Source: Anaerolineales bacterium (GTDB lineage Bacteria; Chloroflexota; Anaerolineae; Anaerolineales; E44-bin32). From it: a stretch of 43,516 nt of DNA. The translations under genes and the position numbers were made by a program. The notes beneath the pieces are model-generated. The model saw only the letters and a list, made by a program, of their open reading frames with translations. It made no database searches and was not told where the DNA came from. The stretch covers positions 1 through 43,516 of the forward strand of contig JBFFMI010000003.1 of NCBI GenBank assembly GCA_041554155.1, given 5' to 3'. Below, in pieces: positions 14,733-36,425 of this stretch; position 1 is the first letter of the stretch, and each line of letters starts with the position of its first letter.

Positions 14733-15491
14733 TTAGAGCACCCTGCCATCCGCAAGAGCTATTGTGCGAGTAGCCCTGGCGGCCAGCTCATCATCGTGCG
14801 TGACCATAAGAATCGTTTTCCCACTGCTTACCAGCTCCTCGAATAAGCGGATGACCTTGCCGGCTGAGACCGAATCGAGATTGCCGGTCGGTTCATCCGT
14901 GGCGATAATTGGGGGATCGTTTGCCAGGGCGCGCGCGATCGCGACCGCCTGTTGCTGCCCACCAGATAGCTGAGCCGGAAGATCATGGGCATGCTCGCCC
15001 AGACCCACAAGACTGAGCAGGTAGTGTGCACGTTCCTCACGCGCCCCGTTCTCGAAGAGCCCACTGAAATCCATCGGGATTCGCACATTTTCGAGCACCG
15101 TCAGCGTCGGCAACAATTGAAAGAATTGAAACACAATGCCCATCGTGCGCCCTCGCCACACTGCCCGTTGCCCTTCCTTCAGGTAGTGCACCGCAGTGCC
15201 ATCAACAAAGATGCGGCCATCGGAGGGTTGATCGATGCCTGTAAGAAGGTTGATCAGGGTGGTCTTTCCACTGCCGGACTTTCCCACGATCGAAACAAAT
15301 TCGCCGCTGTTGATGGTCAGGTCCACATCCTCGAGGGCGGTAAACGTTCCCGCCGATGTATTATAAAGTTTCGAGACACGTTCAAAGGCGATTAACGAAT
15401 CCATCTGTATGGATTCGCTCGGCCCATTAGGTTTGCCATTGCCGTTAACCCGTGTGTGCTTGCCATTTCCGTTCGTGCGCGTAAAGAGCAT
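14733..15491 (-). CDS. ABC transporter ATP-binding protein (LolD/MacB type)
   Basis: 'GKSGSGKTT', 'VFQFFQL', 'LSGGQQQ', 'DEPTGNLD', 'VTHD'. Confidence 0.92.
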
Positions 15492-15500
15492 ACTCCCGCC

Positions 15501-17909
15501 TTATTCGTAATCCAGGACTTCCCGAACTGTAAGTGATGCAGCACGTTGGGCTGGTCCCAGGCTCGCCACCACACCGATTACTCCAATAACCACAAGCCAG
15601 ATAAGCAGTCCCGGGTAGGAGTATTGATAACTTAGATCAGCGTTCAGGATAGCCGTAACAATAGCCGCAGCCAGCGCCAATCCGGCTGGTGCAGACACGA
15701 TCGCTCCCAGGATCCAGCTTACAAATCCGATCACCACACCTTCGATCAAGATCACCCCACGCACAGAATCGTTTGAAGCGCCAACCGCTCGTAAAACCCC
15801 GATTTCGCGCGTCCGCTCGAGGACATTAATCGACAGTGTTCCTGTCAATCCCAGGCCACCCACAATTGCCAGGAGTGCGGCCATGATGATAAGCACAATC
15901 AAGACGATGTCGAAAACATCCGTGAAATCGCCAAATACCGCGTATTGCGTAGTGCTCTCACTGCTTGAGATCCCGGCGTTTTCAAAGCGCGTCTCAAGCT
16001 GTTGGCCCAGTTGATCCTGGGCCGACGGGCTGCTGAGTGCATCTGCATTGAGGCGAAGGCGTACGGAATCGGCCTGGTTATAGCGGTTGGTCAATCGACC
16101 AAACATCGTGGGCGTCATGTACACACGCGGCCCGGAAAGGTGCTTTGATGCAATACCTACGACGCTGAATGTCTGTTCCTTTATTCCCACCTTTAAGGTA
16201 ATTTCGCTACCGAGTCCAATATCTGATTCGACACCGCTGAGATCCTCGTTGATCACGACGCCGTCGGTTTCTCCGTCAGTGAGCCAGCGACCTGCGACCA
16301 AGATTGGATCGATGGTCAGCGAATCATAGGGCAATCCGATCACATCGAGTTGTTCAGACTCACGCTCGCCGCTGTACTGTATGGTGGCACTATCCCGCAC
16401 CCAGCTCTCGACCACGGCCACGCCCTCAATCCGGCGCGCTTCCCGTTCCACCGTCGCTCGCATTGAACCCCGCGGTACCGATATGGCCGCATCGAAATCC
16501 AGATAGCGGGCGATCTCATCGATCTGGGAAGACAGCGATGCACGCGTGCTAAAAACGCTGATGAACATCGCCCCGGACAGCGTCAGGGTCACTAGCGTGA
16601 AGATGAGCCGCGCCTTGTTACGAAAGGTATTGCGCAGCGAGAAGAGGAGAGGCGGGGTTAATCCTCGGATACGCCCAAGAATTCGATCGAAGAGCCCTCT
16701 CTTGGCTTTGCCTACGATCCCGTACTGATAGATGGCATCGTAAACCGATAGTCTGGTGCTCGAGAGCACCGGCAACATCGCCACGCCCAGCGGCAGCAGG
16801 AGGCCCAGAATGACCTGGAGCGCCAACACCTGCAGCGGCAGATTAATTGAGCGAAGATCAAAGTTCGCAAAATTGGATGCGAAGGAGGCCAGCCACCAGG
16901 CACCAACCAGTCCCATAGGGATTGCAATCAACAATCCGAGCACGGTAAATATAAAAACATTAAACAGGTACATGCCAACAATCTGCGTGCGAACAGCACC
17001 GATCGAACGCATAATGCCAATCTGTTTGATTTGTTGAACAATAATGGCTGAAATCGTGTTCACCACCAGCCCACTACTCAGCAGGATCGCCATTACCCCC
17101 ATGATCTGGAAAATAAGCAGCAATCCGTTGATTTGATCTTCAGCCCAATGCCGCCCGGGATCCGAGCCGATCCCCGGAATCTCGGTCCTCAAGGTGAGAT
17201 GACCCCCCGGTGCGAGAACCTGTTCTTTAACCTGCTCTCCAACAGCGAGAACATGATCGCGATCAGTCTTCATATCAGAAACGATAAGGTCCAGGCGATT
17301 GTACAGCGCCGGGTCTCCCATCCAGGTCATGGTATCCATCGATATGAATGCGGTCGCCATGCCGAGGAGTTCATATGGCATCACATAAAGATCATGCACA
17401 ATACCGACCACAGTCAGTTCGTATTCCCGCTCTTCATCATTCTGTAAGACGAGCACATCGCCCAGTTTTAGCCCCAGCGCTTTTGCCGATTGTCTTTCGA
17501 TTGCTACTTCGCGAACGGAGAGCGACATGCGGCCTTCTTCGAGCGTTGGCACATTGACGGCGATGTCCCCGATATCCGGGAAAGCGTTGAGGGTGATATC
17601 TTCCCAGCTACCTTCCGCTGTTAAGAAAGAAGCGTTCTTTATTCTGCGTGGTTGTGTGACTTCAACCTCACGAACCTTTTCCACGGCAGCTGCCACGCCT
17701 TCACCGAAGGCGGAAATATATATTTGCAGGCTCGCCGGCTTGCCTTCTTCAAACGCCCCGAAGAGATCGCGTTGGATATAGATCGCCGCACTGTTGATCA
17801 TCCCTACTGTTGCTACGCCGATGGCAATAGATACAACGACAAGGAAGGAGCGAGTCTTATTTGCCCAGATCTCCTTCAGCACCTTCATCCAGCGGGCAGA
17901 TATTCGCAT
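15501..17909 (-). CDS. MacB/FtsX-type ABC permease with two fused permease repeats
   Basis: Two halves, each with a TM helix, an extracytoplasmic domain and an FtsX motif ('QIKQIGIMRSIGA', 'ERTREIGVLRAVGA'). Confidence 0.9.
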   Translation of the reverse strand: MRISARWMKVLKEIWANKTRSFLVVVSIAIGVATVGMINSAAIYIQRDLFGAFEEGKPASLQIYISAFGEGVAAAVEKVREVEVTQPRRIKNASFLTAEGSWEDITLNAFPDIGDIAVNVPTLEEGRMSLSVREVAIERQSAKALGLKLGDVLVLQNDEEREYELTVVGIVHDLYVMPYELLGMATAFISMDTMTWMGDPALYNRLDLIVSDMKTDRDHVLAVGEQVKEQVLAPGGHLTLRTEIPGIGSDPGRHWAEDQINGLLLIFQIMGVMAILLSSGLVVNTISAIIVQQIKQIGIMRSIGAVRTQIVGMYLFNVFIFTVLGLLIAIPMGLVGAWWLASFASNFANFDLRSINLPLQVLALQVILGLLLPLGVAMLPVLSSTRLSVYDAIYQYGIVGKAKRGLFDRILGRIRGLTPPLLFSLRNTFRNKARLIFTLVTLTLSGAMFISVFSTRASLSSQIDEIARYLDFDAAISVPRGSMRATVEREARRIEGVAVVESWVRDSATIQYSGERESEQLDVIGLPYDSLTIDPILVAGRWLTDGETDGVVINEDLSGVESDIGLGSEITLKVGIKEQTFSVVGIASKHLSGPRVYMTPTMFGRLTNRYNQADSVRLRLNADALSSPSAQDQLGQQLETRFENAGISSSESTTQYAVFGDFTDVFDIVLIVLIIMAALLAIVGGLGLTGTLSINVLERTREIGVLRAVGASNDSVRGVILIEGVVIGFVSWILGAIVSAPAGLALAAAIVTAILNADLSYQYSYPGLLIWLVVIGVIGVVASLGPAQRAASLTVREVLDYE

Positions 17910-18650
17910 TTAGGCTACCTGCCTCGCCCGTTGGGCTGCATTCTCTCGTGCAGAAAGGATGGATCCGTCTGCGATTTCAATGATGCTTGAGGCGTATTGC
18001 GCAATTTCCTCATCGTGCGTGGCAACGATGACCGTTTTCCCGGCAGCGACAAGCTCGGAGAAGACCTCGAGTACGCCCTGCGCTGTTGAGAAATCCAGAT
18101 TGCCGGTAGGTTCGTCCGCCACAATAATCTGTGGATCATTGGCCAGGGCGCGCGCGATTGCGACCCTTTGCTGCTGCCCGCCCGAAATCTTTGCAGGTAT
18201 CTTCTTTGCATGTTCGGAAATACCCACTAGCTCCAGCAAATGCATTGCGCGCTGGACTTGTTGAGTCCCCTTATAAGTTCTGCAGAAATCCATGGGCAAT
18301 GTGATGTTTTCGATCAAGGTGAGCGAAGGGATCAGCTGGAAGAATTGAAACACAATCCCCATGTTCGCCCCCCGCCACTGAGAGAGCTCATCACCGTTCA
18401 TTTCATGCAGAGGCACTCCATCCACGACTACCTCTCCGGCCGTTGGTGTATCGATACCGGTAATCATGTTAATCAGCGTGGATTTTCCAGCACCGGATTT
18501 CCCGTACAGCGCGACGAATTCACCTTGCTGGATATCCAGCTGGATGTCGTGCAGCGCTTCGAAATCACCCGCGACCGTAGAATAGACTTTAACCAGATCA
18601 CGGATGGTGATCAGGTTTTCGGTGGGGTATTGGGTTTTGATGCTATTCAT
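17910..18650 (-). CDS. ABC transporter ATP-binding protein (LolD/MacB type)
   Basis: 'GKSGAGKST', 'ISGGQQQR', 'ADEPTGNLD', 'ATHD'; stop abuts the permease start. Confidence 0.92.
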
Positions 18651-18946: not shown

Positions 18947-20143
18947 TTAGTTTACCACCTCAGCCATTTGTGTGACCACATAGTCGACCTGCGCTTCCGT
19001 CATCACACCGGAGAATGGCAAGGCCAGGCAACGGCGTCCCTGGTCATCGGTGATCGGGAAGTCGCCCATCTGGTAGCCAAAGCGCTCGATGAAATAAGGC
19101 TGGGTATGGATCGGGACAAAATAAGGGCGGGTCGGAACGCCACGAGCCTCGAGTCGTTCGGCCAACTGCAGCCGATCGAGTCCCGCTTGCAAACGCACCA
19201 CAAAGACGAACCAACTCATTCGATCCGTGTCTTGTGTAATCGTCACAGGCTCAATAAACGGCAGCTCACGCAAACGCTCCTGATACCAATTTGCCACTCT
19301 CTCTCGCTTCTCAATCAATTCGTCCAGTCGCCCCATCTGCACTCGCCCGAGAGCTGCGCTGAGCTCATTCAAGCGGTAGTTGTATCCAAGGTGTGTGTGT
19401 TCAAGCCATGTATCACCGGGTGCTCGCCCCTGGTTGCGCATCGCTCGAATCGCTTTAGCATAGGTGTCGTTATTTGTGACGACAATACCGCCTTCGGCTG
19501 TAGTAATCTGTTTGTTGGGATAGAAAGCAAACACACCCAGATCCCCCAGCATACCAGCCGGTGTACCGGCATAGATCGAACCTAAGGCCTCACACGAGTC
19601 TTCGATCAAGATCAGGTTGTACTCTTCGGCAATCGTTTGCAGTTGTTGGTAAGCTGCAGGTTGACCGAAGACATCTACCGGCAGGAGCGCCTTCAACGGT
19701 CCCGGGTTTTCCGCCCCTTTACGTGGCAGCCAGCGCCTGGCAGCTTCACCACCAGCAGCAAGGTCCGCAGCGGCCTGCCGGACAAGATCCGGGTTGATGT
19801 TCCCGGTCTCAGGATCAATATCGACGAAGACCGGTATGGCACGCTCGTACAGCATCACATTGGCGGAAGCAACAAAAGAGAACGGGGTTGTGATCACGAG
19901 ATCACCCTCGCTGATACCCGCAGCACGGACGCAGAGGTGCAAACCCGTCGTCCCCGAACTCACCGCAATGGCGTGTTTTGCACCCACACGCGCTGCGATT
20001 GCCCGCTCAAATTGTTCTACCTCGGGTCCCATACTCAAACTCGGCGTGTGCAAGACGTCGAGCACCGCTTGTCGTTCGGCGTCGGTGATATCCGGGGCCG
20101 ACATGGGGATTCTCATTAAGTCTGTTGTTGGTTTTTCGGTCAA
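18947..20143 (-). CDS. DegT/DnrJ/EryC1/StrS-family NDP-ketosugar aminotransferase (PglE/EpsN-like role)
   Basis: 'VSSGTTGLH', 'EDSCEALG', 'FAFYPNKQITTAEGG' (PLP Lys), 'GYNYRL'; TTG start after GAGG. Confidence 0.92.
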   Translation of the reverse strand: MTEKPTTDLMRIPMSAPDITDAERQAVLDVLHTPSLSMGPEVEQFERAIAARVGAKHAIAVSSGTTGLHLCVRAAGISEGDLVITTPFSFVASANVMLYERAIPVFVDIDPETGNINPDLVRQAAADLAAGGEAARRWLPRKGAENPGPLKALLPVDVFGQPAAYQQLQTIAEEYNLILIEDSCEALGSIYAGTPAGMLGDLGVFAFYPNKQITTAEGGIVVTNNDTYAKAIRAMRNQGRAPGDTWLEHTHLGYNYRLNELSAALGRVQMGRLDELIEKRERVANWYQERLRELPFIEPVTITQDTDRMSWFVFVVRLQAGLDRLQLAERLEARGVPTRPYFVPIHTQPYFIERFGYQMGDFPITDDQGRRCLALPFSGVMTEAQVDYVVTQMAEVVN

Positions 20144-20162
20144 GGCTTCCTCACAGTCGCAA

Positions 20163-21263
20163 TTAATCCCGGGGCCAGATGGTTCCAGCTCGCACTACCT
20201 GGCCGGCAGGCACATCAGCTTTTATGACCGCGGAATTCCCAATCATAGCGCCCGACCCGATGTTGACATGCAGGTTGATGGTAACACCCATACCAACCAG
20301 GACGCTTTCCCCTATCGTCACATTGCCTGCCAGGAGCGCGCCTGGGGCGATATTCACGTAATCGGCCAGGTTACAGTCGTGCGAAACAACGGCAGCGGTG
20401 TTGACTATCACGCCCAATCCAAGCCGCACCTCACTACCAATATATGCATGGGGAAATGTTTGAACCCCAGCTTCCAAGCTTACGCTTGGCTCCACCCAGG
20501 CGCTTGGGTGGATCAAATTCGGGAGCTCGAAACCGTTCACTTGAAGCCGCTCGAACACCTTAGTACGGCTGCTCATATCTCCGATGCCCCCGACCGCGTT
20601 CACCGCCTGGCGAATCCCTTGCTCGCTCAAACTGCGCAGCTCTGCAGCCCCGCCAACCACAGGGATCCCCATGATCTCCACACCCACCGTCAAACCATCA
20701 TCGATGATCCCCGCAATGCGGTATGAACCAATTGCATGGATGAGATCGATCAGCGCCTTGCCATGCCCTCCCCCGCCATAAATAATCAGAGCGGAGCTGT
20801 CGAGCGGTCGATCTGATTTCACCACCCCCCCACCTCCATCGCTGATCATGCGTAGAACTTCCGCTTCGGTGATGAGTATATCTTGTGGAAGATCTTCCAG
20901 ATCTAGTCCACTGGCCCTGGCGAGCTCAAGCGCCGGTCTTGTGATGCGCATGGTTTGAGGTAGTGCTTCCCTATCGGAAACCAGGTCTTCCTCGGGCTCT
21001 TCAGGTGGAACCCAGCTCGCATCATCGGCCAGCCAGCACAATCGCTCTCCAGCCCGGAGCTTATCGCCCTTTGCTTTGCCTAAGGCGACAACATACCCTT
21101 CCCGCTCGGCTGATATCTCGTGGGTTGACTTGGTCGTTTCCACTGTACACAGAAGCTCGCCAGCCGCCAGTTTCTGTCCTTCTGCTACATGGACTTCGAC
21201 AATCTGGACCTCAGGTTCGTTGGGGTTGAGCAGAGGAACAATCACCGCAAAGGCCTCAGACAT
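20163..21263 (-). CDS. Fusion of lipoyl domain, peripheral subunit-binding-like domain and PglD/NeuD-type sugar acyltransferase (hexapeptide beta-helix)
   Basis: N-terminal 'VAEGQKLAAGELLCTVETTKSTHEISAEREG' (lipoyl fold, Lys45); acidic linker; 'ITRPALELARASGLDLEDL' (PSBD-like); 'LIIYGGGGHG', 'LIHPSA', 'NTAAVVSHDC' and hexapeptide repeats. ATG 21263 after GGAG. Confidence 0.85.
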   Translation of the reverse strand: MSEAFAVIVPLLNPNEPEVQIVEVHVAEGQKLAAGELLCTVETTKSTHEISAEREGYVVALGKAKGDKLRAGERLCWLADDASWVPPEEPEEDLVSDREALPQTMRITRPALELARASGLDLEDLPQDILITEAEVLRMISDGGGGVVKSDRPLDSSALIIYGGGGHGKALIDLIHAIGSYRIAGIIDDGLTVGVEIMGIPVVGGAAELRSLSEQGIRQAVNAVGGIGDMSSRTKVFERLQVNGFELPNLIHPSAWVEPSVSLEAGVQTFPHAYIGSEVRLGLGVIVNTAAVVSHDCNLADYVNIAPGALLAGNVTIGESVLVGMGVTINLHVNIGSGAMIGNSAVIKADVPAGQVVRAGTIWPRD

Positions 21264-21350
21264 GGGTTTCTCCATTATCGAGTTCAAACATAAGATCAGT
21301 TCCAACCATCGTCGCTTGAAGGCCAAGACCCACAGCAGGCACCCATGCGA

Positions 21351-22346
21351 TCATCTTTCCATCATCCCGAGCGCCAATTCGACAATCTCATCCACCTGTG
21401 GAAGAACTTCCTGCTCGAGCGTTGCCGCTGCTGGGACGGGCATATTTCTGGCTGCCGCTCGCCCAAATCTCACGTTGGAACGAATATTTTCAAGTGACCT
21501 TGCGGCAAGTTCGGCACTCCAACCCAAATTCAAACTACCTTCTTCAATGGCCAGTATCTTTCCTGTCTTGCGCACGCTCTCATAGAATGGTTCGAGATCG
21601 AAGGGGCTTAATTGAGTCGGAACCACCAATTCGACGAAGATCTCTTTTTCATAAGCCAATTTATGCATCACCTCACGTCCAATTTCCGCCATATAGCCAT
21701 AAGCTGCTAGCGTGAGATCAGCACGTGGCGCACCAGCAATTCCCACTATCGACCATGGATAAGCCCCGCTTACTTTGTGCATCTCAAACTCGCGCCCGGG
21801 AGAGAAGGTAGAAAGCGGATACAGCAGCTTATGCTCAACCAGCAACACAGGATCATCGTCTTCAAGGATAGCCTGGATGAGCACCTGCTCAGGTGCAACA
21901 TAGGTATTGAGTGCCAGGACACGCAAACCGGCTGCGCCCAAGAAGTGCTTCTCCAGCGTTTGGCTGTGTGTCGGTCCGTATCCCCGGTATCCCCCCATTG
22001 GAGTCCTCACGACCAGCGGCACTCGAACCTGATCATTGCTCATCCATCGAAATTTTGCAGCGTGGTTGATGAGTTGATCGGCAGCCAGGGTGAGGAAATC
22101 CCCGAACATAATCTCCACAATAGGGCGCAAACCCCGTAGCGCCATCCCGACTCCCAAGCCTACAATTCCAGCTTCGGATACCGGGGTGGTTATTACCCTC
22201 TCTGGATAATCGGTGGACAATCCCCTGGCCACTTTAAAGGCACCCCCATAGGGATCGAGAATATCTTCTCCTAACAGATATACGTCAGCGGATTTCTCCA
22301 GGCAGTGGCGTAAACCAGCATTGATCCGATCCAGGAATGTCGTCAT
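21351..22346 (-). CDS. 2-oxoacid dehydrogenase E1 beta subunit (PdhB/AcoB-like)
   Basis: 'LLGEDI', 'TPVSEAGIVG..GMALRGLRPIVEIMFGDF', 'DQLIN', 'HSQ', 'DPVLLVEHKLLY'; ATGA overlap with E1 alpha. Confidence 0.92.
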   Translation of the reverse strand: MTTFLDRINAGLRHCLEKSADVYLLGEDILDPYGGAFKVARGLSTDYPERVITTPVSEAGIVGLGVGMALRGLRPIVEIMFGDFLTLAADQLINHAAKFRWMSNDQVRVPLVVRTPMGGYRGYGPTHSQTLEKHFLGAAGLRVLALNTYVAPEQVLIQAILEDDDPVLLVEHKLLYPLSTFSPGREFEMHKVSGAYPWSIVGIAGAPRADLTLAAYGYMAEIGREVMHKLAYEKEIFVELVVPTQLSPFDLEPFYESVRKTGKILAIEEGSLNLGWSAELAARSLENIRSNVRFGRAAARNMPVPAAATLEQEVLPQVDEIVELALGMMER

Positions 22347-23263
22347 GCGCTGGCACCCAGGGCTGGCGTGATGTCGCTTGGGGTCGCCATCGGATCGCTT
22401 TGAGCCTGTTCAAAAGCCGCGTCCACCTCGGCTGTTACCTCGGTTTCTACATCATCGATCTCACCCGTCTTTACCGCTGAGCGGATCATGATCAACGGAT
22501 CGCGTTGTTGGAAATGTGCGATTTCATCTGGGTCACGCACATCATCCCCTTTGGAGTGGGGTGCAAAGCGGTAGGTATCAATGATCAGGGCTTGTGGACC
22601 CTTTCCCTTGCGAACGTGAGAGACCAAGCGCTCCGTTTCTTCCCCGATCTGTTGCACCTCGGTGCTGTCGATGTGTTTGGCAGTGATCCCAAAAGCCCCA
22701 AACCGTGCGGCGATATCTCCGGCCAGGTTCAAGGCGATCGGCGTGCTTTGTGCATAGCGGTTGTTTTCACAGATAAACAGTACTGGCAAGTTCCAGAGAG
22801 AGGCCATATTCAGGCTCTCATAAACGACCCCTTCTCCAAGCGTGCCATCACCCATGAAGGCAAATACGACTGCCCCGGGCTCCCTCTCCCTCAGCGCAAA
22901 CGCCATCCCTGTTGCAAGTGGGATGGTGCCTCCCAGTATTCCATTCGCATAAAAGTTGCGCCACTGGATATGCTGGCTTCCACCTCTTCCCCCACAAACG
23001 CCCGTGGAACGGCCCATCAGCTCAGCCGCCAGAGCATGCATTGAGCCGCCATAGGCAAGAAAGTGACCATGACAGCGGTGGTTGCTCACGACGATGTCGC
23101 TTTTGTCCAACCAGTTAAGCACCCCTACGGCGTTCGCTTCCTGCCCGATATAGGTATGCGTGGTCCCATAAAATAGCCCGCGCGGGAAGAGTTCGAGGAC
23201 TTTCTCCTCAAAACGGCGAATTCGTAGCATGGCACGGTAGGAATCAGCAGGAGTGGACTTCAT
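22343..23263 (-). CDS. ThDP-dependent dehydrogenase E1 alpha subunit (PdhA/AcoA-like)
   Basis: 'IRRFEE', 'HTYIGQEA', 'HRCHGH', 'GRGGSQH', ThDP motif 'GDG...ENN', 'TYRFAPHSKGD'. Confidence 0.93.
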   Translation of the reverse strand: MKSTPADSYRAMLRIRRFEEKVLELFPRGLFYGTTHTYIGQEANAVGVLNWLDKSDIVVSNHRCHGHFLAYGGSMHALAAELMGRSTGVCGGRGGSQHIQWRNFYANGILGGTIPLATGMAFALREREPGAVVFAFMGDGTLGEGVVYESLNMASLWNLPVLFICENNRYAQSTPIALNLAGDIAARFGAFGITAKHIDSTEVQQIGEETERLVSHVRKGKGPQALIIDTYRFAPHSKGDDVRDPDEIAHFQQRDPLIMIRSAVKTGEIDDVETEVTAEVDAAFEQAQSDPMATPSDITPALGASA

Positions 23264-23399: not shown

Positions 23400-23585
23400 T
23401 TACATATTGGCTTCGCCGAAGTCCTTACCAACAATGCGCCAAGCTTCGTGTGTTCCAGCTGGTGCCTTGGTTACGGCAAAGAACTGCACACGACCCTTGT
23501 CGGATACTTTCTTTTCAATCCGCCAATCAGCAGATTTGAACTTGGTCTTGGACTTCACATCATAAAATTCAAGGGTTTCTTTCAT
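23400..23585 (-). CDS. Small basic protein resembling crenarchaeal chromatin protein CC1
   Basis: 61 aa MKETLEFYDVKSKTKFKS...KGRVQFFAVTKAPAGTHEAWRIVGK; AGGAGG RBS; own promoter and terminator. The L-x-F-Y-D-x-K...F-A-V-x-K...R-x-x-G-K pattern matches CC1 as I recall it. Confidence 0.7.
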   Translation of the reverse strand: MKETLEFYDVKSKTKFKSADWRIEKKVSDKGRVQFFAVTKAPAGTHEAWRIVGKDFGEANM

Positions 23586-23694: not shown

Positions 23695-24375
23695 CTATGG
23701 CGTCGATTCTCCTTCGGTCCCCATAAATTCTTCTGCTGTTGCATGACCGGGCTGGCTGATGCCTTCTCGAGTCAATACCTTCCAGAGCGTCATCAGGAGG
23801 ATCTTGAGATCAAGCCAGAATGACCAGTGGTCGACATACCAGACGTCAAACTTGAATTTGTCCTCCCATGTCAGCGCATTACGCCCATTGACTTGAGCCC
23901 AGCCTGTTATCCCTGGTAGGACTTCGTGGCGCCGAGCCTGCTCTGGAGAGTAGCGTTCTAGGTACTGCACCAGCAAGGGGCGTGGTCCAACCAGGCTCAT
24001 CTCCCCGCGCAGCACGTTGAACAACTCCGGGAGCTCATCCAGGCTGAAAGACCGTAAAAACCGCCCCAATCTGCCCAATCTCTGGGCATCGGGCAGGTAG
24101 GCCCCGGTTTCATCCCGGGCATCCATCATGCTGCGAAATTTGTAAACAGCGAAGAGCTGGCCATGGTATCCCGGCCTCACCTGGCTGAAAAGAACCGGAC
24201 TCCCGAGCTTCCAGCGCACCAAAACAGCGATGATCAACAGGAGCGGGCTTGCCAAAACCAGCCCGGGCAGGGTTATTAGGAGATCGAAAAGCCGCTTTGA
24301 CAGCGGGATTCCAGCGGGGAATACACCGGTTTTTACCTTACGCGCTGATTCTGGAGGGTGACCGGGGTTAGGCAT
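23695..24375 (-). CDS. Monotopic phosphoglycosyltransferase (PglC/EpsL-like, polyprenyl-P sugar-1-P transferase)
   Basis: 'KRLFD', 'KFRSM', 'SLDELPELFNVLRGEMSLVGPRP', 'PGITGWAQVNGRN', 'DVWYV'. Confidence 0.92.
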   Translation of the reverse strand: MPNPGHPPESARKVKTGVFPAGIPLSKRLFDLLITLPGLVLASPLLLIIAVLVRWKLGSPVLFSQVRPGYHGQLFAVYKFRSMMDARDETGAYLPDAQRLGRLGRFLRSFSLDELPELFNVLRGEMSLVGPRPLLVQYLERYSPEQARRHEVLPGITGWAQVNGRNALTWEDKFKFDVWYVDHWSFWLDLKILLMTLWKVLTREGISQPGHATAEEFMGTEGESTP

Positions 24376-25600
24376 CGGGGCCTCCCGCTTGCTGCACCAG
24401 ACTCACCATGATCTTTTCAAGATCTTCAGCCAGACTGACCCGATCATAGTGCGTGTTCACCCAGCGCCGCCCGGCCTCACCCATCTTCCGTGCATTCTCC
24501 CGGTTTGAGGCGAGCTGCTGGACGGCATCAGCGAGGGCCTGGGGGTTCCCGGGTTGGGCGAATAACCCTGCCTCTCCCTGCTCCACGACCTTGCGTATGA
24601 CCCCATCGATTGCACAAACGACGGGCAAGCTCGCTGCCATATAATCAAACACCTTGTTGGGATAGGTCGTCTTATAGGCATCAATCGCCATCAAAATTGC
24701 AAGGCCGGCATCTGCCTGGGCGAGGAGCCCGGGCATATCCTGCTTTGCTGCAGGATCAAGGAAGTGAACCCTTTCAAGCCTTCGCTTTCTTGCCATGGCT
24801 TGCAGCGCTGCTTTCTCTTTGCCGTCACCCACCAGCACAATATGGATATCTGTGCTTGCTTTTAAGATCTCGGCAGCGGATAGCAGGGTTGTCAGATCGT
24901 TGGACAATCCATGTGCACCCGCATACAGCAGCAGGAATCCATCGCCAACTTCCAGCCTTTCTCTCAAATCCCCTTTCGCCCCGGCCTGGGCAAATAAACC
25001 ACAGTCAACCCCGTTGGGCACAATTTCCACACGCCCCGCGCCACGGGCTCGCACATGTTCAACATACCCCGGCGAGTTCACAACGACGACGTCAGCCGCC
25101 CTGTATAATCGCCGCTCGAGCCAGGTAGACATTCCAATTATTAGCCGCGCTCGCAGCACACCGCTTTCAATCGCAAAGTATGGCCATAGATCACGAATTT
25201 CAAGGACGAAGGGCAACCGGCGCAATCGAGCCAGCAGCGCTGCGCTTACAGCCTGAAAAATTGGAGGGGAGGTACCCCACACAAGATCTAGTTCCTTTAT
25301 TCTTAATCCAGCGATGAAAGATCGAAACATAAAGCTAAAGAAACTCAAAAGACGATGGAAAAATGAGCGATGCCAGGCGTGGTAGCCAGGAATTCGCCAA
25401 ATTTCAACGCCCACATCGTCAAACTGGGGGCCTCTTTCGACATGGCGAGCCGTCCGATCACCGGTCAGGTAGCTGCCCTGGCCCGTAATGATGGTAACGG
25501 GGTGTCCTCTGCCTTGAAGATGGCGCGCAAGCTCATGGTGGCGGGTACCCCCCGGCTCATCCAGCGCTGCGAATGCCTGGTGGATCAGCAGGATCTTCAT
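24368..25600 (-). CDS. Glycosyltransferase family 4 (WbuB-like)
   Basis: 'TSPP', 'EIRDLWP', 'PNGVD', 'PNKVFDYMAASLPV'. Confidence 0.9.
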   Translation of the reverse strand: MKILLIHQAFAALDEPGGTRHHELARHLQGRGHPVTIITGQGSYLTGDRTARHVERGPQFDDVGVEIWRIPGYHAWHRSFFHRLLSFFSFMFRSFIAGLRIKELDLVWGTSPPIFQAVSAALLARLRRLPFVLEIRDLWPYFAIESGVLRARLIIGMSTWLERRLYRAADVVVVNSPGYVEHVRARGAGRVEIVPNGVDCGLFAQAGAKGDLRERLEVGDGFLLLYAGAHGLSNDLTTLLSAAEILKASTDIHIVLVGDGKEKAALQAMARKRRLERVHFLDPAAKQDMPGLLAQADAGLAILMAIDAYKTTYPNKVFDYMAASLPVVCAIDGVIRKVVEQGEAGLFAQPGNPQALADAVQQLASNRENARKMGEAGRRWVNTHYDRVSLAEDLEKIMVSLVQQAGGPDA

Positions 25601-25601
25601 C

Positions 25602-27728
25602 TTAATTCGACCACGTTACCGCACCCCATTGAATGCCACCGAAGGCGACCCGGTTTTCTTGGATAGGACTCCATTGAATATCAGGCATAATCTTTTGATC
25701 GCCGTCGAAAACCCAGGTGCTCATCATGCGGACTGGTAGTGTGCGCGTGGATTGCACAACCAGCTGTAACCCCGGCTCTCTCAGGGCATAGGAAGGTGCG
25801 TGCCATCCGTAAACATCCTGCTGATTAACGATGGCTTCTCCCGCAACAGATTTACCGGCCCGATATATGCCCCACTTTACCTCTTCAGCGGGGAAGTTAA
25901 GTGATGCATTGAACTTCTCATGTTTCAGCACAAGCGTGGTATCGATGACATCCCAGGCCAGGTCGGGCAGGTTCCAATTGAGCGCCACCTGATGCTCGTC
26001 TTTTCCCAGAATATCATCCACGACGACAATCCGTTCGCATCCCAGGATCGCGATACTCCTCTGGTGCACCATCCCCGACCACCGCCTGGCGAGATGGCGG
26101 GCAAAGAGTACATGAAGATCATCCTGCTCATAGCGAACCACATTCGCCAGCGACCAATCCAACCAGAGAAAACGACCACCCTTTAGCATGGGTTCACGCC
26201 CATCCAGCATCACGGTGTTATGACACCAGGCCCCTGAGAAAGCATTGTCCCACGGGGTTGGTGCATTGTAGAGGAAGGTGCCTGGATCGTGCGCGAGATT
26301 AATGCCTTCGTACCAAATATCCAGATGCAGCTGGTCGCTGTGACCGGGCCTGTTCTGGAAGGACGCTGCGCGCAGCGATACCTTCAATCCATTCTTGCGG
26401 GTGAGATGGAGCCCTGCCTGTGGCAGATCAATGGCCTGACTTCTCCCGCCATCGTCATTTGTTCTTCTGGGTGCGCCATCAGCGATGCCCAACCACAATG
26501 CCATATCATCCCACTCGCCTTCTGGGTAATACCCCTCGCCGAAGAAGAGCTTCCACGCAGCCTGGATCGTGGGGCGGTAATCGCCGAAGGGGCGAATGCT
26601 CAGCGGCAACAGTCGGGCACCGTCATTCGGCCCGAAGTTCGGGACGGCACCAAGCTCTTCATCCACAAAAACGGCCAGGCAGGTCGCCATTTGCCCCAGC
26701 GCGTTTAGGGTTGACGGCGCCAAAGGGTCCCCTGCGTCTGCGGCGACATGCGCAACAAGCAATCCAATCTCCAATGCCAGACGATGATAATTTGTTGAAT
26801 GTTGCACATAACCCCCGTCCGGGAAGGTTTGCTGAAGGACTCCTGCTTCGAATGTCCGTTTGCCATGTCGCTTCCATCGTTCCGCATCACCCAGTTCTGG
26901 CATCATCAGGCCGGTCAGAAAAAGCCCTGCACTCTCCAAAAGCAGGTGGTTGTTATTTTGGGCACGGGCATAGGACAGAGAAGGCGGGATTCTCTGGGCA
27001 TGGACGGCGATTGCCTTGAGTAGATCTATCCACTTCTCTGGCTGCGACTGAAATTCTGCTGAAAAGGTTTGCGCGGCAAAGAGCAAGGCGATCAACCGGA
27101 AAGCAACTTCCTGGGCCGAATACCAGTGCACACCCATTTGTGGCGGGTTCGCGACCTTCCAGGATTGGTACAGATCCCAGAAGGTGTCAAAATAACGACG
27201 ATCTCCGCTCACAGCGTAGGCTTGCACCAGTGGAAACACCCACGCAAAACGTGAGAGCTCCCAGACCAATTTCACATCGTGGGGCAAAGCGTTCAGATCG
27301 TAACGGCTCCAGTGCATCGTACCCGGAACGGTTATCCCCCGGCCTACACCCGCCAGGGGTGCAAATGCATGCCAATCCGGGGGTATATCAAATTTAACCT
27401 CGTGGCTACCGAATAGGCAAAATTCCCCGGATTCAATAGCCTTCCCCCGCGCCACCAGCGCGTGCTCACTGCCCTTGCGAATGCGATGGACATTGCGTTT
27501 CAGATCAAAACAGGAAGGTTCCCGATTCGCTGCATGATAGGCCAGCAGCGCTTCAGGATCAGATGGAACCCCGCTTCCCAGCAACCCGGAGAGCGCAACT
27601 TGTGACCAGGACCGAAGCGGCAGGCGCCTGCGGAAGTACCCGCTGCGAAGCGCCAGGCTGTACCAGCCATATTGGCTGAGCGAGGGCAGACCTAATTCTC
27701 GAATCGCGCTTAGGACACGCGGGATCAT
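25602..27728 (-). CDS. Heparinase II/III-like (alginate lyase-fold) protein
   Basis: 'DVKLVWELSRF', 'NNHLLLE', 'DGGYVQHSTNYH', 'GHSDQLH', 'DPGTFLY', 'HNTV'. Confidence 0.85.
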   Translation of the reverse strand: MIPRVLSAIRELGLPSLSQYGWYSLALRSGYFRRRLPLRSWSQVALSGLLGSGVPSDPEALLAYHAANREPSCFDLKRNVHRIRKGSEHALVARGKAIESGEFCLFGSHEVKFDIPPDWHAFAPLAGVGRGITVPGTMHWSRYDLNALPHDVKLVWELSRFAWVFPLVQAYAVSGDRRYFDTFWDLYQSWKVANPPQMGVHWYSAQEVAFRLIALLFAAQTFSAEFQSQPEKWIDLLKAIAVHAQRIPPSLSYARAQNNNHLLLESAGLFLTGLMMPELGDAERWKRHGKRTFEAGVLQQTFPDGGYVQHSTNYHRLALEIGLLVAHVAADAGDPLAPSTLNALGQMATCLAVFVDEELGAVPNFGPNDGARLLPLSIRPFGDYRPTIQAAWKLFFGEGYYPEGEWDDMALWLGIADGAPRRTNDDGGRSQAIDLPQAGLHLTRKNGLKVSLRAASFQNRPGHSDQLHLDIWYEGINLAHDPGTFLYNAPTPWDNAFSGAWCHNTVMLDGREPMLKGGRFLWLDWSLANVVRYEQDDLHVLFARHLARRWSGMVHQRSIAILGCERIVVVDDILGKDEHQVALNWNLPDLAWDVIDTTLVLKHEKFNASLNFPAEEVKWGIYRAGKSVAGEAIVNQQDVYGWHAPSYALREPGLQLVVQSTRTLPVRMMSTWVFDGDQKIMPDIQWSPIQENRVAFGGIQWGAVTWSN

Positions 27729-27736
27729 CAGTGGGG

Positions 27737-29890
27737 TTATCTGGTTATCGAAACCGGCTCGCCTGTGCGTAGAGCTTGAACCGCCGCAAAGCTGGCTCGT
27801 GTCACCGCGAACAGTTGATCATAGGGGATCGGCGGCTCCTGCGTATCGAGAATCGCCTCAGCAAACGCCTCCCACTCAGCCCGATGGCCCTTATCCTGCC
27901 TCAACCTGGTTGAAAAACGCTGCTGTCGACCATTCTCGATCCATGTAAGCCGGCGGAAATCATTCAGGATTCCAACACGTCCTGATTGAAATACCTCCAG
28001 ATACTCTTTCGCAAGCGACCGATCGCCATTAGAAAAATAACTCACAGTACCAATGGATCCATCCATAAAGTCGAGGGTGATGCTCACGCTGTCTTCCATC
28101 GAATCACCCGTCATTGGCAATCCGCTTGCACTTACTCTCGTGGGCAGAGAACCACATATGAAAGTCAGAAAATCGATAAAGTGACATGCTTCCCCAATGA
28201 TCCGGCCACCACCTTGATCGGGGTCAAACAGCCAGTGTGTTGCTGGCAAGGAACCGGCATTTACCCTGTAGTGCATTGCTAGAGGCGCGCCGCTCGTTTT
28301 TAAATGCGATTTCAAGCGTACGGCATGCGGTGAAAAGCGTCGATTAAATCCAACGGTCAGGATGGTTTCACTGGATGCCAGCTCCTCCTGGATCTCATCC
28401 AATTCTTCATGATTGAGCGCCAGCGGTTTTTCACAAAAAACATGCTTGCCCGCTGCTAGTCCGGCCACAACGTAAGCTGCATGCAGATGATGGCGCGTTA
28501 GGATGGCTACCGAGTTGATCTCAGGATCCTGGATCAACTGTTCCGCATCCGTGCCAACCCGCTTGAAGTTGAATCGTTTGCCAAGGTCAGCCGCACTGCG
28601 CCCTGCGGCTGAAGCGATTGCTACCAGTCCAACATCTTTGACCTTCTTGATCGCCGGTAAAAGGACAGCGCTGGCAAAGTTGCCCGCCCCAATCACACCA
28701 AGCTTTACCCCAGCCCTGGGGGGCGCTCCTATATCGCGGTAGTTGATCTGGTGTTCAATGGCTGGTTCCGGGGTTTCAGGATACGTTAGCAGGATTCCTG
28801 TGTAACGTGTCTTTCCCTTCCCTGCAATCAAATCGTATGCCTGGAGCGCATCTTCGATGGCGAACTCTTGTGTTATCAAAGGCTCTACATCAACCGATCC
28901 CGATTCGAGCAGTTCAAGAAAGGCCTGTAGATTTCGCCCTTCCGTCCAGCGAACGTATCCGTAGGGGTAATCCTGCCCTGATTCCTCATAGCCTGGATCG
29001 TACCTTCCGGGTCCATAGGAGCGAGAGATATGGAAGCGCAATTCTTTCTCATAGTACATCTTGCGGGGCAGATGAGTCCCTACGACACCTGTCGCCACGA
29101 CAACGCCACGATCTCGTGCAATTGCGCCGGCAAGCTCAACCGTATCATCTGAAGGGGTGTCTGCACATATTTGAACCAGGTCAAAGCCCAGGTGATTTGT
29201 GAATTCGGGCGTCGCTTGCTCAGCTTCTTCGCGCACAGCGGCGTCAAAACCAAGTTGACGTGCTTCTTCAACACGCTGGGGATCGACATCGATGCCCAGA
29301 ACCGCGCAACCTGCCGCTCTGGCGATGTTCGCCGTTAGCAAGCCCAGCAGCCCCATACCGATCACCGCTACTCGATCACGTACGCCTGCTTCTCCCAACC
29401 TGAACCCATGCAACGCGATTGCGCCTACCGTTGCAAAAGCCCCCGCCTTGAAACTGACCTTCTCTGGAATGCGGGCGATTAAATTACGCGGGACGAGGGC
29501 ATATTCCGCATGAACCGCATAACCCCCACCGGCACAAGCAACCCGATCCCCCACCTGAAAACCTTCCATCCCTGGGCCCAGTCCCTCGATCGTCCCCGCT
29601 GAAGAGTAGCCCAGGGGCAGAGGTTGATCGAGGCGATTTGTAACGGCATCGATGGTGGTCAGCAGGCCTTCACGCCGCGCCTTCTCGATCACCTGGCGCA
29701 CCAGATCTGGACGAGAAGCAGCTTTGCCGATCAGGCTTTTCCCCGCGAATTCCACCAGAGCCCGTTCGGTTCCGGCTGAAACAAGCGAGGCGTGTGTGCG
29801 AACCAACGCCATCTTGGGCTGCACGACTGGTACAGGAATTTCGATCAGCTGTGTTTTACCACTGCGAATATCTTGAACAACTTGCTTCAT
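27737..29890 (-). CDS. Bi-domain oxidoreductase (MDR alcohol dehydrogenase + Gfo/Idh/MocA)
   Basis: 'SLVSAGTE', 'PLGYSSAG', 'GMGLLG', 'SYGPGRYD', then 'GVIGAGNF', 'HVFCEKP', 'VGFNRRF', 'GGGRIIGEACHFID'; ATG 29890 after GAAGGA. Confidence 0.9.
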   Translation of the reverse strand: MKQVVQDIRSGKTQLIEIPVPVVQPKMALVRTHASLVSAGTERALVEFAGKSLIGKAASRPDLVRQVIEKARREGLLTTIDAVTNRLDQPLPLGYSSAGTIEGLGPGMEGFQVGDRVACAGGGYAVHAEYALVPRNLIARIPEKVSFKAGAFATVGAIALHGFRLGEAGVRDRVAVIGMGLLGLLTANIARAAGCAVLGIDVDPQRVEEARQLGFDAAVREEAEQATPEFTNHLGFDLVQICADTPSDDTVELAGAIARDRGVVVATGVVGTHLPRKMYYEKELRFHISRSYGPGRYDPGYEESGQDYPYGYVRWTEGRNLQAFLELLESGSVDVEPLITQEFAIEDALQAYDLIAGKGKTRYTGILLTYPETPEPAIEHQINYRDIGAPPRAGVKLGVIGAGNFASAVLLPAIKKVKDVGLVAIASAAGRSAADLGKRFNFKRVGTDAEQLIQDPEINSVAILTRHHLHAAYVVAGLAAGKHVFCEKPLALNHEELDEIQEELASSETILTVGFNRRFSPHAVRLKSHLKTSGAPLAMHYRVNAGSLPATHWLFDPDQGGGRIIGEACHFIDFLTFICGSLPTRVSASGLPMTGDSMEDSVSITLDFMDGSIGTVSYFSNGDRSLAKEYLEVFQSGRVGILNDFRRLTWIENGRQQRFSTRLRQDKGHRAEWEAFAEAILDTQEPPIPYDQLFAVTRASFAAVQALRTGEPVSITR

Positions 29891-29952
29891 AGTTTCCTTC
29901 ACCGTATGACTAGTGGTCAATCAGTGCGCATCCACAGGCGGGGTGCGAGGCG

Positions 29953-30005: not shown

Positions 30006-30803
30006 CTACGGTGTGCGCTCCAGCCTGGCGGCTGCCTTGTCTGCCAGCCGGGGATGGATGACGTAGTATTGCTGTCCATCTGAATCTTTCTGGGCTAGCC
30101 CTTTGAGGGTCCCGCGCTGTAGAGAACCCACGCCATCGACCATAAGGCGCACCATTTCGGGCTCGAGGCGCTGACGCACTCCGCTCAGCTGTTCGCCTGC
30201 GCTCAACCGATAGTAATGGTGCTTTAAGATCGGTCCGGTATCCACTCCGGCATCCATGAGATGCAAGGTGAGGCCAACCTCGGGTAGCCCTTCCCGGGCT
30301 TCAAGGATGCTCCACTCCAGGGTATCCATGCCACGGTAGCGGGGCAGCAATCCGGAGTGACAATTTAACACCCCGATCGTGGGAATTGCGAGTATATGCT
30401 TGCGGATCAATCCCCCACCCGTGAACACAATCAGGTCCGGTGCAAGAGACTTCAATGAGGCTTCGCACCTCTGCGAGTTAAAGTCGCCCACCTGTCGGCA
30501 GGGGATTCCCATCCGGCGACTGATCGCAATCAAGGTGCGCTCTTCCAAGCGCTGTTCTTCCGCCATAATGGCAAGCGGGGTTTCCGATTTGAAAGCTTCG
30601 CTTTCGGGCAGGATCAGTTTATTGAAGGCTTTCTGCAGCAAGCGCGGTCCTTCACGACGGAGATCAACTCGAATACGCTTGCGTGACCAAAGGCGCCTTA
30701 CATAGACTCCCACCAGCGCTACCCCGTCGAGTTCACCCAATCCCCGGGCAACCAGGCGTGAGTATAAACTGCGGTTCGTAGGTGCTAAGAGCACGACGCG
30801 CAT
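30006..30803 (-). CDS. Formyltransferase-family protein (probable sugar N-formyltransferase)
   Basis: 'VLNCHSGLLPRYRG' and 'LHLMDAGVDTGPI' are N10-formyl-THF motifs. Confidence 0.82.
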   Translation of the reverse strand: MRVVLLAPTNRSLYSRLVARGLGELDGVALVGVYVRRLWSRKRIRVDLRREGPRLLQKAFNKLILPESEAFKSETPLAIMAEEQRLEERTLIAISRRMGIPCRQVGDFNSQRCEASLKSLAPDLIVFTGGGLIRKHILAIPTIGVLNCHSGLLPRYRGMDTLEWSILEAREGLPEVGLTLHLMDAGVDTGPILKHHYYRLSAGEQLSGVRQRLEPEMVRLMVDGVGSLQRGTLKGLAQKDSDGQQYYVIHPRLADKAAARLERTP

Positions 30804-31465
30804 CAGGCCGTTAACTCCAAGAAGGTTGCCTCTGTCTCGCTCAAGGCAAGCAGAAAGCGCAGCTGTGATTCAAGATTATGCCCTTTTATGAAATAACCAT
30901 AGGCCCAATCATTAAGTTTCAGTGCTGCGTTTAAATACCGGAAATCACCAACTCGCTGTGCATAGCGGTTGAACAGAAGGCTCATCGATGCCACTGCCTG
31001 CCAGCGCTCCTTTTCTGTCTGTGGATCAACAAAGCGAAGCGCTCCCTGTTTCCAAACTTCAACGTGACGCAGCAGGGCTTCCAGGCTCGCTCGTTGTGTC
31101 GCCTTGAGAGGTTCCTCCCGATCCACCGCCATGCGCAAAGCTTCAATCCCGCCCACATCGATTTTTCCGCTTCGGACAATCGGCTCATCCGTGTCGGCCC
31201 GCCACCCGGTCGGCTCAATGGGGGTGCGCGGCGCTGATACGTCGATGGCAGGCAACCCTTGAAAGCCAGATCGGTCTAATCGAACGAGCACCCGATGTAG
31301 TTGAGATAGGTAGGGGTTGCCTGAGGGTATGCTTCCATCTGCAACCGCTCCGGCGAGTGCCTGCAACCGCACCCTTAGAAAACTATGCAGTTTCCTTTCA
31401 GGGACCGTGTCGTCCAAAAGTTGCTGTGCTATCGAAAGCACCCATCCCATTAAACGTCGGATCAT
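30803..31465 (-). CDS. Hypothetical protein (helical; C-terminal 'DFRYLNAALKLND')
   Basis: ATG 31465 overlaps the upstream stop (ATGA) and its stop overlaps the next start, so it is coupled within the operon; family not recognised. Confidence 0.6.
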   Translation of the reverse strand: MIRRLMGWVLSIAQQLLDDTVPERKLHSFLRVRLQALAGAVADGSIPSGNPYLSQLHRVLVRLDRSGFQGLPAIDVSAPRTPIEPTGWRADTDEPIVRSGKIDVGGIEALRMAVDREEPLKATQRASLEALLRHVEVWKQGALRFVDPQTEKERWQAVASMSLLFNRYAQRVGDFRYLNAALKLNDWAYGYFIKGHNLESQLRFLLALSETEATFLELTA

Positions 31466-35978: not shown

Positions 35979-36425
35979 TTATTGATCGCGCTGGCCCACG
36001 AATTTGGCTGGAACACCCGCCCAGATTTGGTATTCGCCCGTGGAGTCTAAAAGCACAGCGTTCGCGCCCACCACACTTCCCCTACCCACGCGGAGGAAGC
36101 CCTCTTTCCCCAGCACCTTTGCTCCTGGTGCGAGGATGACATCATCTTCTATGATGATCCCTTCAAATTTCGAGTCCTCGATAGGTTGGTAAATATCCGC
36201 CCTACCCAGCGTGACGCCTGGATAAATTTTGACCCGGTTCCCGATTTTGCTGTTGGGGTGGATAACAATCCCAAAACCGCCATGCTCTAGCGTCACACCC
36301 TCTCCAATGGGGACATTGCGTGGCACCTCGGCCCCCAGCAACTTTAAAAGATAGTAGGCCAGGGAGCCCACAAGTGGAAGCCGGCGGCTATACAAAAGGC
36401 GAGTGTAGCGATCTTTCCTGCTCAT
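35979..36425 (-). CDS. Hexapeptide-repeat acetyltransferase (serine-acetyltransferase-like sugar O-acetyltransferase)
   Basis: 'HGGFGIVIH', 'GVTLG', 'VVGANAV', C-terminal 'AGVPAK'. Confidence 0.85.
   Translation of the reverse strand: MSRKDRYTRLLYSRRLPLVGSLAYYLLKLLGAEVPRNVPIGEGVTLEHGGFGIVIHPNSKIGNRVKIYPGVTLGRADIYQPIEDSKFEGIIIEDDVILAPGAKVLGKEGFLRVGRGSVVGANAVLLDSTGEYQIWAGVPAKFVGQRDQ

Follow-up and report, generated by a model that had tools for sequence, protein, structure and literature searches.

The window analysed here, by which we mean the whole stretch of 43,516 nucleotides (nt), comprises positions 1–43,516 of the forward strand of contig JBFFMI010000003.1 (labelled C3) in assembly GCA_041554155.1, a metagenome-assembled genome of an Anaerolineales bacterium that is 2.65 Mb in size and 84% complete. 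It carries four closely packed genes on the minus strand, listed in Table 1, which encode the α and β subunits of a 2-oxoacid dehydrogenase-type enzyme (E1) dependent on thiamine diphosphate (ThDP), a fusion protein in which a lipoyl-type domain precedes a sugar acyltransferase domain, and a DegT-family sugar aminotransferase. The fusion and its E1 partner are the subject of this analysis.

The four open reading frames (ORFs) lie exactly where a preliminary description of this DNA had placed them, and the ATGA overlap by which it had coupled E1 α to E1 β was confirmed in the letters. GGAG stands just 5′ of the ATG of the fusion at 21263, and this methionine is the start in 14 of 16 aligned sequences; with this start, residue 45 is a lysine and its codon is therefore the one previously assigned. 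The fusion and DegT genes are 19 nt apart, and the motifs GDG...NN, ETTKS, YGGGGHG and SHDC were all found in the window proteins. On the same strand, the upstream neighbours are a PglC-type transferase, a family 4 glycosyltransferase (GT4), a heparinase II/III-like protein and an ADH_zinc + GFO/IDH/MocA fusion, and farther upstream there are more GT4 genes, a formyltransferase-like gene, a UDP-GlcNAc 2-epimerase and a UDP-sugar 6-dehydrogenase. The four-gene cluster sits in a glycan locus.

Table 1. Coordinates of the E1–fusion–DegT cluster, the domains of the fusion protein and the two features immediately upstream (aa, amino acids; PDH, pyruvate dehydrogenase; PSBD, peripheral subunit-binding domain)
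Feature	Position in window	Strand	Basis and remarks
E1 α, 306 aa	22343–23263	minus	E1_dh (PF00676) 3e-55; short, divergent PDH-type ThDP subunit
E1 β, 331 aa	21351–22346	minus	Transket_pyr + Transketolase_C; ATGA overlap with E1 α
Fusion protein, 366 aa	20163–21263	minus	Lipoyl domain, acidic linker, PSBD-like segment, PglD_N, left-handed β-helix acyltransferase
Fusion, lipoyl domain, residues ~4–80	21024–21254	minus	PF00364 4e-12 (residues 18–76); Lys45 codon 21129–21131
Fusion, PSBD-like two-helix segment, residues ~103–143	20835–20957	minus	Conserved R106/P110, weak PSBD matches
Fusion, PglD_N + hexapeptide β-helix, residues 159–357	20193–20789	minus	TIGR03570; His295 codon 20379–20381
DegT-family sugar aminotransferase, 398 aa	18947–20143	minus	PF01041 (DegT) 9e-110
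Small PglC-type polyprenyl-phosphate phosphoglycosyl transferase, 226 aa	23695–24375	minus	Bac_transf 3e-65
Conserved 61-aa ORF between PglC and E1 α	23400–23585	minus	tblastn conservation

A search of 5.8 billion proteins found at least 120 relatives of the fusion, with identities of 53–99% and each with 98–100% query cover. The domain set PF17836 + PF00364 + PF00132 is present in 119 of the 120 listed relatives, and those that carry a name are Anaerolineales. Of 361 pattern matches in species-representative genomes, 300 encode a relative of the fusion. The locus counts given below (n = 80) refer to the best 80 of these 300 species genomes, and their denominators vary with the available flank: E1 linkage was scored on 63 loci with at least 2.3 kb upstream, DegT on 74 loci with at least 1.5 kb downstream, and PglC on 59 loci with at least 5 kb upstream. 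A profile of the N-terminal module retrieved approximately 90 clusters (at 50% identity) with E ≤ 1e-30 from 1.84 billion representatives. Nine of ten distant full-length matches contain a lipoyl domain together with PglD_N and/or Hexapep. The tenth (P0213), in which Pfam recognizes only the lipoyl domain, was considered as a case of the N-terminal module on a different C-terminal domain; this was rejected, as the sequence proved to be a copy of this same family with many frameshifts.

The distribution of the fusion is patchy: 7 of 401 sampled Chloroflexota genomes are positive (counting that of the window), and six of the seven belong to the same taxonomic order as the window. A search for longer forms found none of 642 aa or more, which is weak evidence, and the search for short forms gave only four matches, probably fragments, three of them on contigs shorter than 1 kb, with no convincing split form. 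PglD-type genes on plasmids match the C-terminal half of the fusion only (0/185 records cover 80% or more, and the 25 listed start at residue 135–163), which identifies the first ~155 residues as an added module. We reject the possibility that the fusion is an assembly chimera, because the listed relatives are full-length, the architecture recurs in 300 species genomes, and the linkage to E1 is conserved. Dozens of genomes share both the architecture and the gene order, which makes the arrangement more than chance. The 80 loci are all from Chloroflexota except one (L002), which is labelled Methanosarcinales. Its PglC-E1α-E1β-fusion-DegT genes are 57–75% identical to those of the window, and its E1 α nests among near-identical Anaerolineales sequences on a branch of ~0.02; this contig is therefore probably mis-binned Chloroflexota DNA rather than archaeal.

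Domains were identified using Pfam and NCBIfam models. The preliminary description had expected Biotin_lipoyl, PglD_N, Hexapep and an E3_binding-like domain in the fusion; the first three were found, and Pfam E3_binding has no match in the window copy. Judged by its sequence, the N-terminal site is lipoyl-type and not biotinyl. Its best matches among solved structures are lipoyl domains of dihydrolipoyl acyltransferases (E2; 7b9k, 2e-11), compared with 5e-4 for a biotin carrier, and the domain was modelled with a predicted local distance difference test (pLDDT) score of 75–92. Lys45, Thr44 and Glu42 are each kept in 80/80 loci, as is His167. PROSITE-style site patterns were checked on the E2s and biotin carboxyl carrier proteins (BCCPs) of the same genome: the lipoyl pattern matches 3/3 E2s and 0/2 BCCPs, and the biotin pattern 1/2 BCCPs and 0/3 E2s. 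Within the fusion family the lipoyl pattern matches 74/80 sites and the biotin pattern 0/80, and the motif E-[TSN]-T-K-[SAT] is found in 80/80. A biotinyl carrier, which would share the Pfam family (Foldseek on the N-terminal fold returns both BCCPs and lipoyl domains, so that the fold alone does not split the two), is extremely improbable here: Met-Lys-Met is absent from the site, E2 lipoyl domains score far above biotin carriers, and the neighbouring genes encode E1 and not carboxylases.

The linker that follows is probably a PSBD, as three weak lines of evidence converge. R106 and P110 are kept in 79/80 sequences, and when a profile of 44 family members was compared with the PDB, its two best matches were PSBDs (E = 0.02 and 0.07). 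Pfam E3_binding (PF02817) matches 8 of these 44 members, with a best value of 4e-4. AlphaFold predicts helices at residues 109–117 and 133–143, in a block that reaches a pLDDT of 89 when the linker is folded alone, and Foldseek on the linker returned PSBD or E2 entries as its top seven and as 13 of 23 listed matches, the best at E = 0.28 and none at E ≤ 0.001. In a distant genome from a different family of the phylum (G369), the linker looks closer to a canonical PSBD.

The C-terminal half belongs to the NeuD/PglB/VioB family (TIGR03570), scoring 180.9 bits against a curated cut-off of 160.8 (183.1 bits in the genome scan), and is the only NeuD/PglD-family protein above that cut-off in the genome. 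Its closest solved relatives are the acetyltransferase domain of Neisseria PglB (PglB-ATD; 1e-30) and PerB (2e-29), followed by VioB and PglD, all of which act on 4-amino-4,6-dideoxy sugars according to the titles of their PDB entries. His295 aligns with the PerB residue altered in the H141N entry 4eaa, and is kept in 79/80 sequences. A prediction of the complex between three copies of the β-helix half (residues 152–366) and the lipoyl domain (residues 1–90) gave scores of 0.05 and 0.00 against a mark of 0.32, and counts neither way.

E1 α and E1 β lie upstream of the fusion, on the same strand, in 61 of the 63 loci, with E1 β within 400 nt in 54. The linkage persists where the fusion has diverged to ~30% identity: in G369, it still follows E1 α (49% identical) and E1 β (46%). 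Homologs of the fusion thus do co-occur with E1 genes, as the preliminary description had required of them. No plain PglD gene stands beside these E1 genes in any of the 80 loci. There is one clear exception to the linkage, the fusion locus L050 in a 7-Mb bin (G401). The same bin holds PglC-E1α-E1β (61% and 57% identity for the E1 subunits) on a separate contig (C615; L094, L097), and neither fusion nor DegT was found within 7.3 kb downstream of these genes. Either the system is split in this genome or the bin mixes two organisms.

The E1 pair of the locus is, on the evidence of its sequence relationships, a dedicated enzyme distinct from housekeeping E1. E1 α scores 272 bits against TIGR03182, below the cut-off of 394, and is 28–38% identical to the three housekeeping paralogs of the genome. 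A quick maximum-likelihood tree separates 66 locus E1 α sequences from four housekeeping paralogs with a Shimodaira–Hasegawa-like approximate likelihood ratio (SH-aLRT) support of 99, albeit with long branches. Its best solved relative is human PDH E1 α (2e-48), compared with ~1e-23 for the branched-chain 2-oxoacid dehydrogenase (BCKDH). The Atlas places E1 α among short "acetoin:DCPIP oxidoreductase-like" clusters, which we treat as a lead only. The ThDP motif was described as intact in the window, and it is so across loci: the Asp of GDG is kept in 64/65 and the second Asn of NN in 68/68. E1 α His236 (in FAPHS) aligns with the His of YHGHS in human PDH and is kept in 69/69 sequences, while His127 (THSQ; 75/75) and Glu58 (VSEAG; 74/74) of E1 β both align with solved E1 β subunits. 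We take the histidines to be the residues of reductive acylation, and Glu58 to be that of cofactor activation.

E1-like pairs without an E2 add two-carbon branches in secondary metabolism, as with YerE and AviB1/B2. The E1 pair might on this precedent, and on the lead from the Atlas, be a ThDP enzyme that forms carbon–carbon bonds, adding a two-carbon branch to a keto sugar, in which case the lipoyl domain would be vestigial. We consider this highly improbable: a vestigial domain would not be expected to keep its lysine in every locus and a lipoyl pattern in nearly all of them, the histidines aligned to E1 active sites are invariant, and in none of the 80 loci are these E1 genes accompanied by a plain PglD.

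The fusion itself has no match to the canonical E2 core (PF00198), and the E2 core, lipoamide dehydrogenase (E3) and LplA are each found in 0/80 loci, so that the loci contain no other outlet for an acyl-lipoyl group. As had been described, there is no E3 in the window; its contig is absent from the matches of the genome to TIGR01350 (lipoamide dehydrogenase). The genome encodes three canonical E1/E2 sets, whose three E2 cores are all on contigs other than that of the window, together with one true E3 (contig C12, 575 bits), LipA (373 bits) and LipB (113 bits). As the last three are all above their cut-offs, the cell should be able to lipoylate such an arm and to re-oxidize it. An LplA-like protein, BirA and two BCCPs are also present. 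We note that the housekeeping E2 core match beside the sole true E3 (C12:15494–16189, minus strand) contains one in-frame TGA, which could represent a sequencing error, a frameshift or a broken gene.

It is conceivable that the β-helix domain acts as a non-homologous E2 core, moving the acyl group from the lipoyl arm to coenzyme A (CoA) or another thiol carrier and so supplying a local pool of acyl thioester. The domain does occupy exactly the position of an E2 core, where the canonical core is missing. We nevertheless regard this as very unlikely, given that the nucleotide-sugar domain PglD_N is conserved along with the catalytic His, as an amine acceptor would lead one to expect, that β-helix transferases have a single thioester tunnel, and that no carrier-protein family was recognized among the ORFs scanned, some small ORFs being outside the scan.

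On the side of the sugar acceptor, the closest solved relative of DegT is the GDP-perosamine synthase of Caulobacter (229 bits), ahead of PglE (144 bits), WbpE (142 bits) and PseC (134 bits). The gene is directly downstream of the fusion in 49 of the 74 loci, and somewhere in the locus in 55. Where there is no adjacent DegT, the downstream genes that were scanned are unrelated (DNA methylases, phosphatases), so that the operon ends at the fusion. In G369, a divergent DegT neighbours a short-chain dehydrogenase/reductase (SDR) of the 4,6-dehydratase family on the other strand. The preliminary description had assumed a UDP-amino sugar as the acceptor, for which we find no specific support: DegT and the β-helix domain are nearest to the GDP-perosamine pair Per/PerB. 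It had also proposed that PglC installs this product as the first sugar of the glycan. A PglC-type gene is present in 47 of the 59 loci, which lends that proposal no specific support, and the link of PglC to the product of the fusion is one that we infer. A route to 2,3-diamino uronic acids like that of WbpA/B/E/D/I, suggested by the GFO/IDH/MocA oxidoreductase, the UDP-sugar 6-dehydrogenase and the 2-epimerase of the window, is disfavored: perosamine synthase is a closer relative of DegT than WbpE is, and the β-helix is of the PglD/PerB class.

The best explanation of these results is that the E1 subunits and the fusion form a dedicated three-gene acyl relay, organized like a small-scale 2-oxoacid dehydrogenase complex with a PglD/PerB-type N-acyltransferase in place of the E2 core. 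The evidence for it is comparative throughout. The fusion is the only lipoyl protein beside E1, and its only tethered catalytic domain is a sugar N-acyltransferase; direct relay is therefore the simplest mechanism, and we consider it fairly probable that E1 loads an acyl group onto the lipoyl arm of the fusion and that the β-helix passes it to the amino sugar made by DegT. In such a mechanism, the divergent E1 α2β2 would decarboxylate a small 2-oxoacid, most simply pyruvate, and reductively acylate lipoyl-Lys45, while the fusion would be held to E1 through its PSBD-like segment. The S-acyl-dihydrolipoyl arm would then enter the thioester tunnel of the β-helix, which acyl-CoA occupies in related enzymes. 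His295 would deprotonate the amine of the nucleoside diphosphate (NDP)-4-amino-4,6-dideoxyhexose supplied by DegT, giving an N-acyl sugar without free acyl-CoA, and a housekeeping E3 would re-oxidize the arm. PglC and the GT4 genes of the locus would finally build the N-acyl sugar into a surface glycan. E2 cores and β-helix transferases are both trimers with active sites at subunit interfaces.

As E1 resembles PDH more than BCKDH, the default acyl group is acetyl, derived from pyruvate. Another small acyl group is quite possible, because of the placement of E1 α in the Atlas and because the subunit sizes resemble those of the Qnc/Scl relay discussed below. The interpretation of the preliminary description, also a lipoyl relay, is thus retained in part: the fusion is no chimera, it co-occurs with E1 and its catalytic residues are kept, and it is for the UDP-linked acceptor and the transfer by PglC that we find no specific support.

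Several observations weigh against a relay of this kind. As regards the acceptor, 19 of the 74 loci lack DegT, an SDR is present in just 3/80, and neither a full-length PglF-type dehydratase nor a Gmd above cut-off was found in this 84% complete genome, where an RmlB/GalE-like SDR on another contig is below its cut-offs. As regards the carrier, the PSBD assignment is weak in each of the scores quoted above (profile, Pfam and Foldseek), and E3 is not encoded in the locus. If the acyl group is acetyl, the relay would bypass abundant acetyl-CoA for no evident reason. Contigs from the RNA libraries of one study span the junctions DegT/fusion, fusion/E1 β and E1 β/E1 α at 99% identity or more; the depth is flat and the flanks are covered too, which is compatible with DNA carry-over, and expression is weakly indicated. 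The remaining points concern the β-helix domain: the fusion is above the cut-off of an ordinary acetyltransferase family, its closest solved relatives were all crystallized with CoA or acetyl-CoA, and we found no sequence feature in this domain that indicates loss of acyl-CoA binding.

These last three points are also what would be expected if the fusion were a conventional acyl-CoA-dependent N-acetyltransferase of the PglD/PerB type, in which the lipoyl and PSBD-like module serves only for docking to E1 or to PDH, for channeling or regulation. We think this unlikely. A purely structural module does not need Lys45, Thr44 and Glu42 to be invariant, nor does docking call for a dedicated E1 in which both of the histidines that align with the active sites of solved E1s are retained; moreover, acyl-lipoyl produced by that E1 would be left without an outlet in loci that contain no E2 core. 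We therefore prefer the lipoyl relay.

To our knowledge, all characterized sugar N-acyltransferases of this fold use acyl-CoA (the related LpxA and LpxD use acyl-ACP, where ACP is acyl carrier protein), and the acyl group of every characterized lipoyl arm goes to an E2-type core. If the relay is correct, an E2 core can be replaced by an unrelated transferase, and a lipoyl arm can feed glycan biosynthesis directly, so that central 2-oxoacid metabolism would be connected with the chemistry of the cell surface without CoA. The relay would constitute a compact three-protein module for the acylation of amino sugars from cheap 2-oxoacids, and it would predict a so far unknown N-acyl sugar on the surface of widespread uncultured Anaerolineae. 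In the Atlas, clusters that combine Biotin_lipoyl and Hexapep are dominated by Pseudomonadota (99 members), Planctomycetota (77) and Actinomycetota (232). A wider and rather doubtful suggestion is that lipoyl-tethered β-helix acyltransferases are a general, multi-phylum class that transfers acyl groups lacking a CoA pool directly from 2-oxoacids or ketose phosphates to glycans or metabolites; such groups might be propionyl, branched acyls or, as in the Qnc pathway, a glycolyl unit taken from hydroxypyruvate or a ketose phosphate. Were this so, the Chloroflexota glycan would bear an unusual N-acyl sugar derived from CoA-free chemistry.

Other features of the window were noted in the course of the analysis. 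The 61-aa ORF between PglC and E1 α has tblastn matches in 24/80 loci, of which the six best (79–95% identity) all lie between PglC and E1 α and exceed the flanking enzymes in conservation. The ORF gives no Pfam match at E ≤ 0.1, RNA-library contigs cross it, and it is possibly unrelated to the relay. Upstream of PglC, a minus-strand block (24368–29920) comprising the ADH_zinc + GFO/IDH/MocA fusion (727 aa), the heparinase II/III-like protein (708 aa) and a GT4 is recurrent upstream of PglC-E1-fusion, with all three genes in 16/80 loci and the heparinase-like protein plus GT4 in 20/80; in the distant G369 locus a stand-alone GFO/IDH/MocA gene directly follows the fusion. The ADH_zinc and GFO/IDH/MocA block may make a second, oxidized sugar of the same glycan.

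Two further minus-strand ORFs within the glycan locus, of 255 and 350 aa (30803–31570 and 31462–32514), overlap by ~110 nt and have no Pfam match at E ≤ 0.1; possible interpretations are membrane proteins involved in glycan assembly and a single gene with a frameshift. Between a GT4 and the UDP-GlcNAc 2-epimerase there is a second, small protein with hexapeptide repeats (36003–36326, minus strand, in an open frame of 198 aa). It shows a weak, partial match (28 bits) to the C-terminus of the NeuD family, and probably belongs to this locus as an ordinary acetyltransferase. Directly downstream of DegT there is a MacB-like ATP-binding cassette (ABC) export set on the minus strand (14733–18650), with two ATPases and an 802-aa permease, which is syntenic only in the closest relative (L001).

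We found no description of a lipoyl–PglD/NeuD fusion or of lipoyl-dependent sugar acylation in the full-text literature searched, most subscription journals being outside its reach, and the system is placed here by comparison with its nearest known counterparts. It resembles the 2-oxoacid (pyruvate) dehydrogenase complex in having an E1 of the heterotetramer type with a ThDP motif and both catalytic histidines, and the fusion follows the order of an E2 subunit: lipoyl domain, linker, PSBD-like segment, linker and oligomeric acyltransferase. It differs in that a left-handed β-helix sugar N-acyltransferase stands in place of the chloramphenicol acetyltransferase-like E2 core, in that the locus has no E3, and in that the expected acceptor is an amino sugar and not CoA. 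With PglD, Neisseria PglB-ATD, PerB and VioB it shares PglD_N and the β-helix fold, the YGGGGHG motif, the catalytic His equivalent to PerB His141 and a DegT partner. Those enzymes are stand-alone proteins of ~200 aa that use acetyl-CoA, whereas the fusion carries a 155-residue lipoyl and PSBD-like module and is tied to E1.

The nearest documented analogue is the relay of quinocarcin and scleric acid biosynthesis. QncN/QncL/QncM and SclQ1–4 are described as a system in which an E1-like ThDP pair and a lipoyl domain relay a glycolicacyl unit (PMC6335953), and thus E1 and a lipoyl domain deliver an acyl group to an acceptor other than CoA, as proposed here. The sizes given there for SclQ2, SclQ3 and SclQ4 (305, 338 and 386 aa) are close to the 306, 331 and 366 aa of the present proteins (PMC6335953), a likeness in length. 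According to the same report, the catalytic domain of the acyltransferase is homologous to QncL, and the acceptor is an acyl carrier protein that feeds a nonribosomal peptide synthetase (PMC6335953). By contrast, the transferase of the window is a β-helix enzyme in a glycan locus, without a recognized carrier protein within the scan described above. The transferase domain of the QncL type is presumably of the E2 type.

There is finally a resemblance to the acetoin dehydrogenase system AcoA/AcoB/AcoC, which lies in the short, AcoA-like E1 α (by the names used in the Atlas, and again as a lead only); in addition, the lipoyl part of the fusion matches the AcoC model NF011457 at 4e-7. In some bacteria, AcoC likewise combines a lipoyl domain with a catalytic fold other than the canonical one. 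AcoC, however, hands acetyl to CoA in catabolism and lacks a sugar-binding domain and a glycan context, whereas the fusion described here combines its lipoyl domain with PglD_N within a glycan locus.

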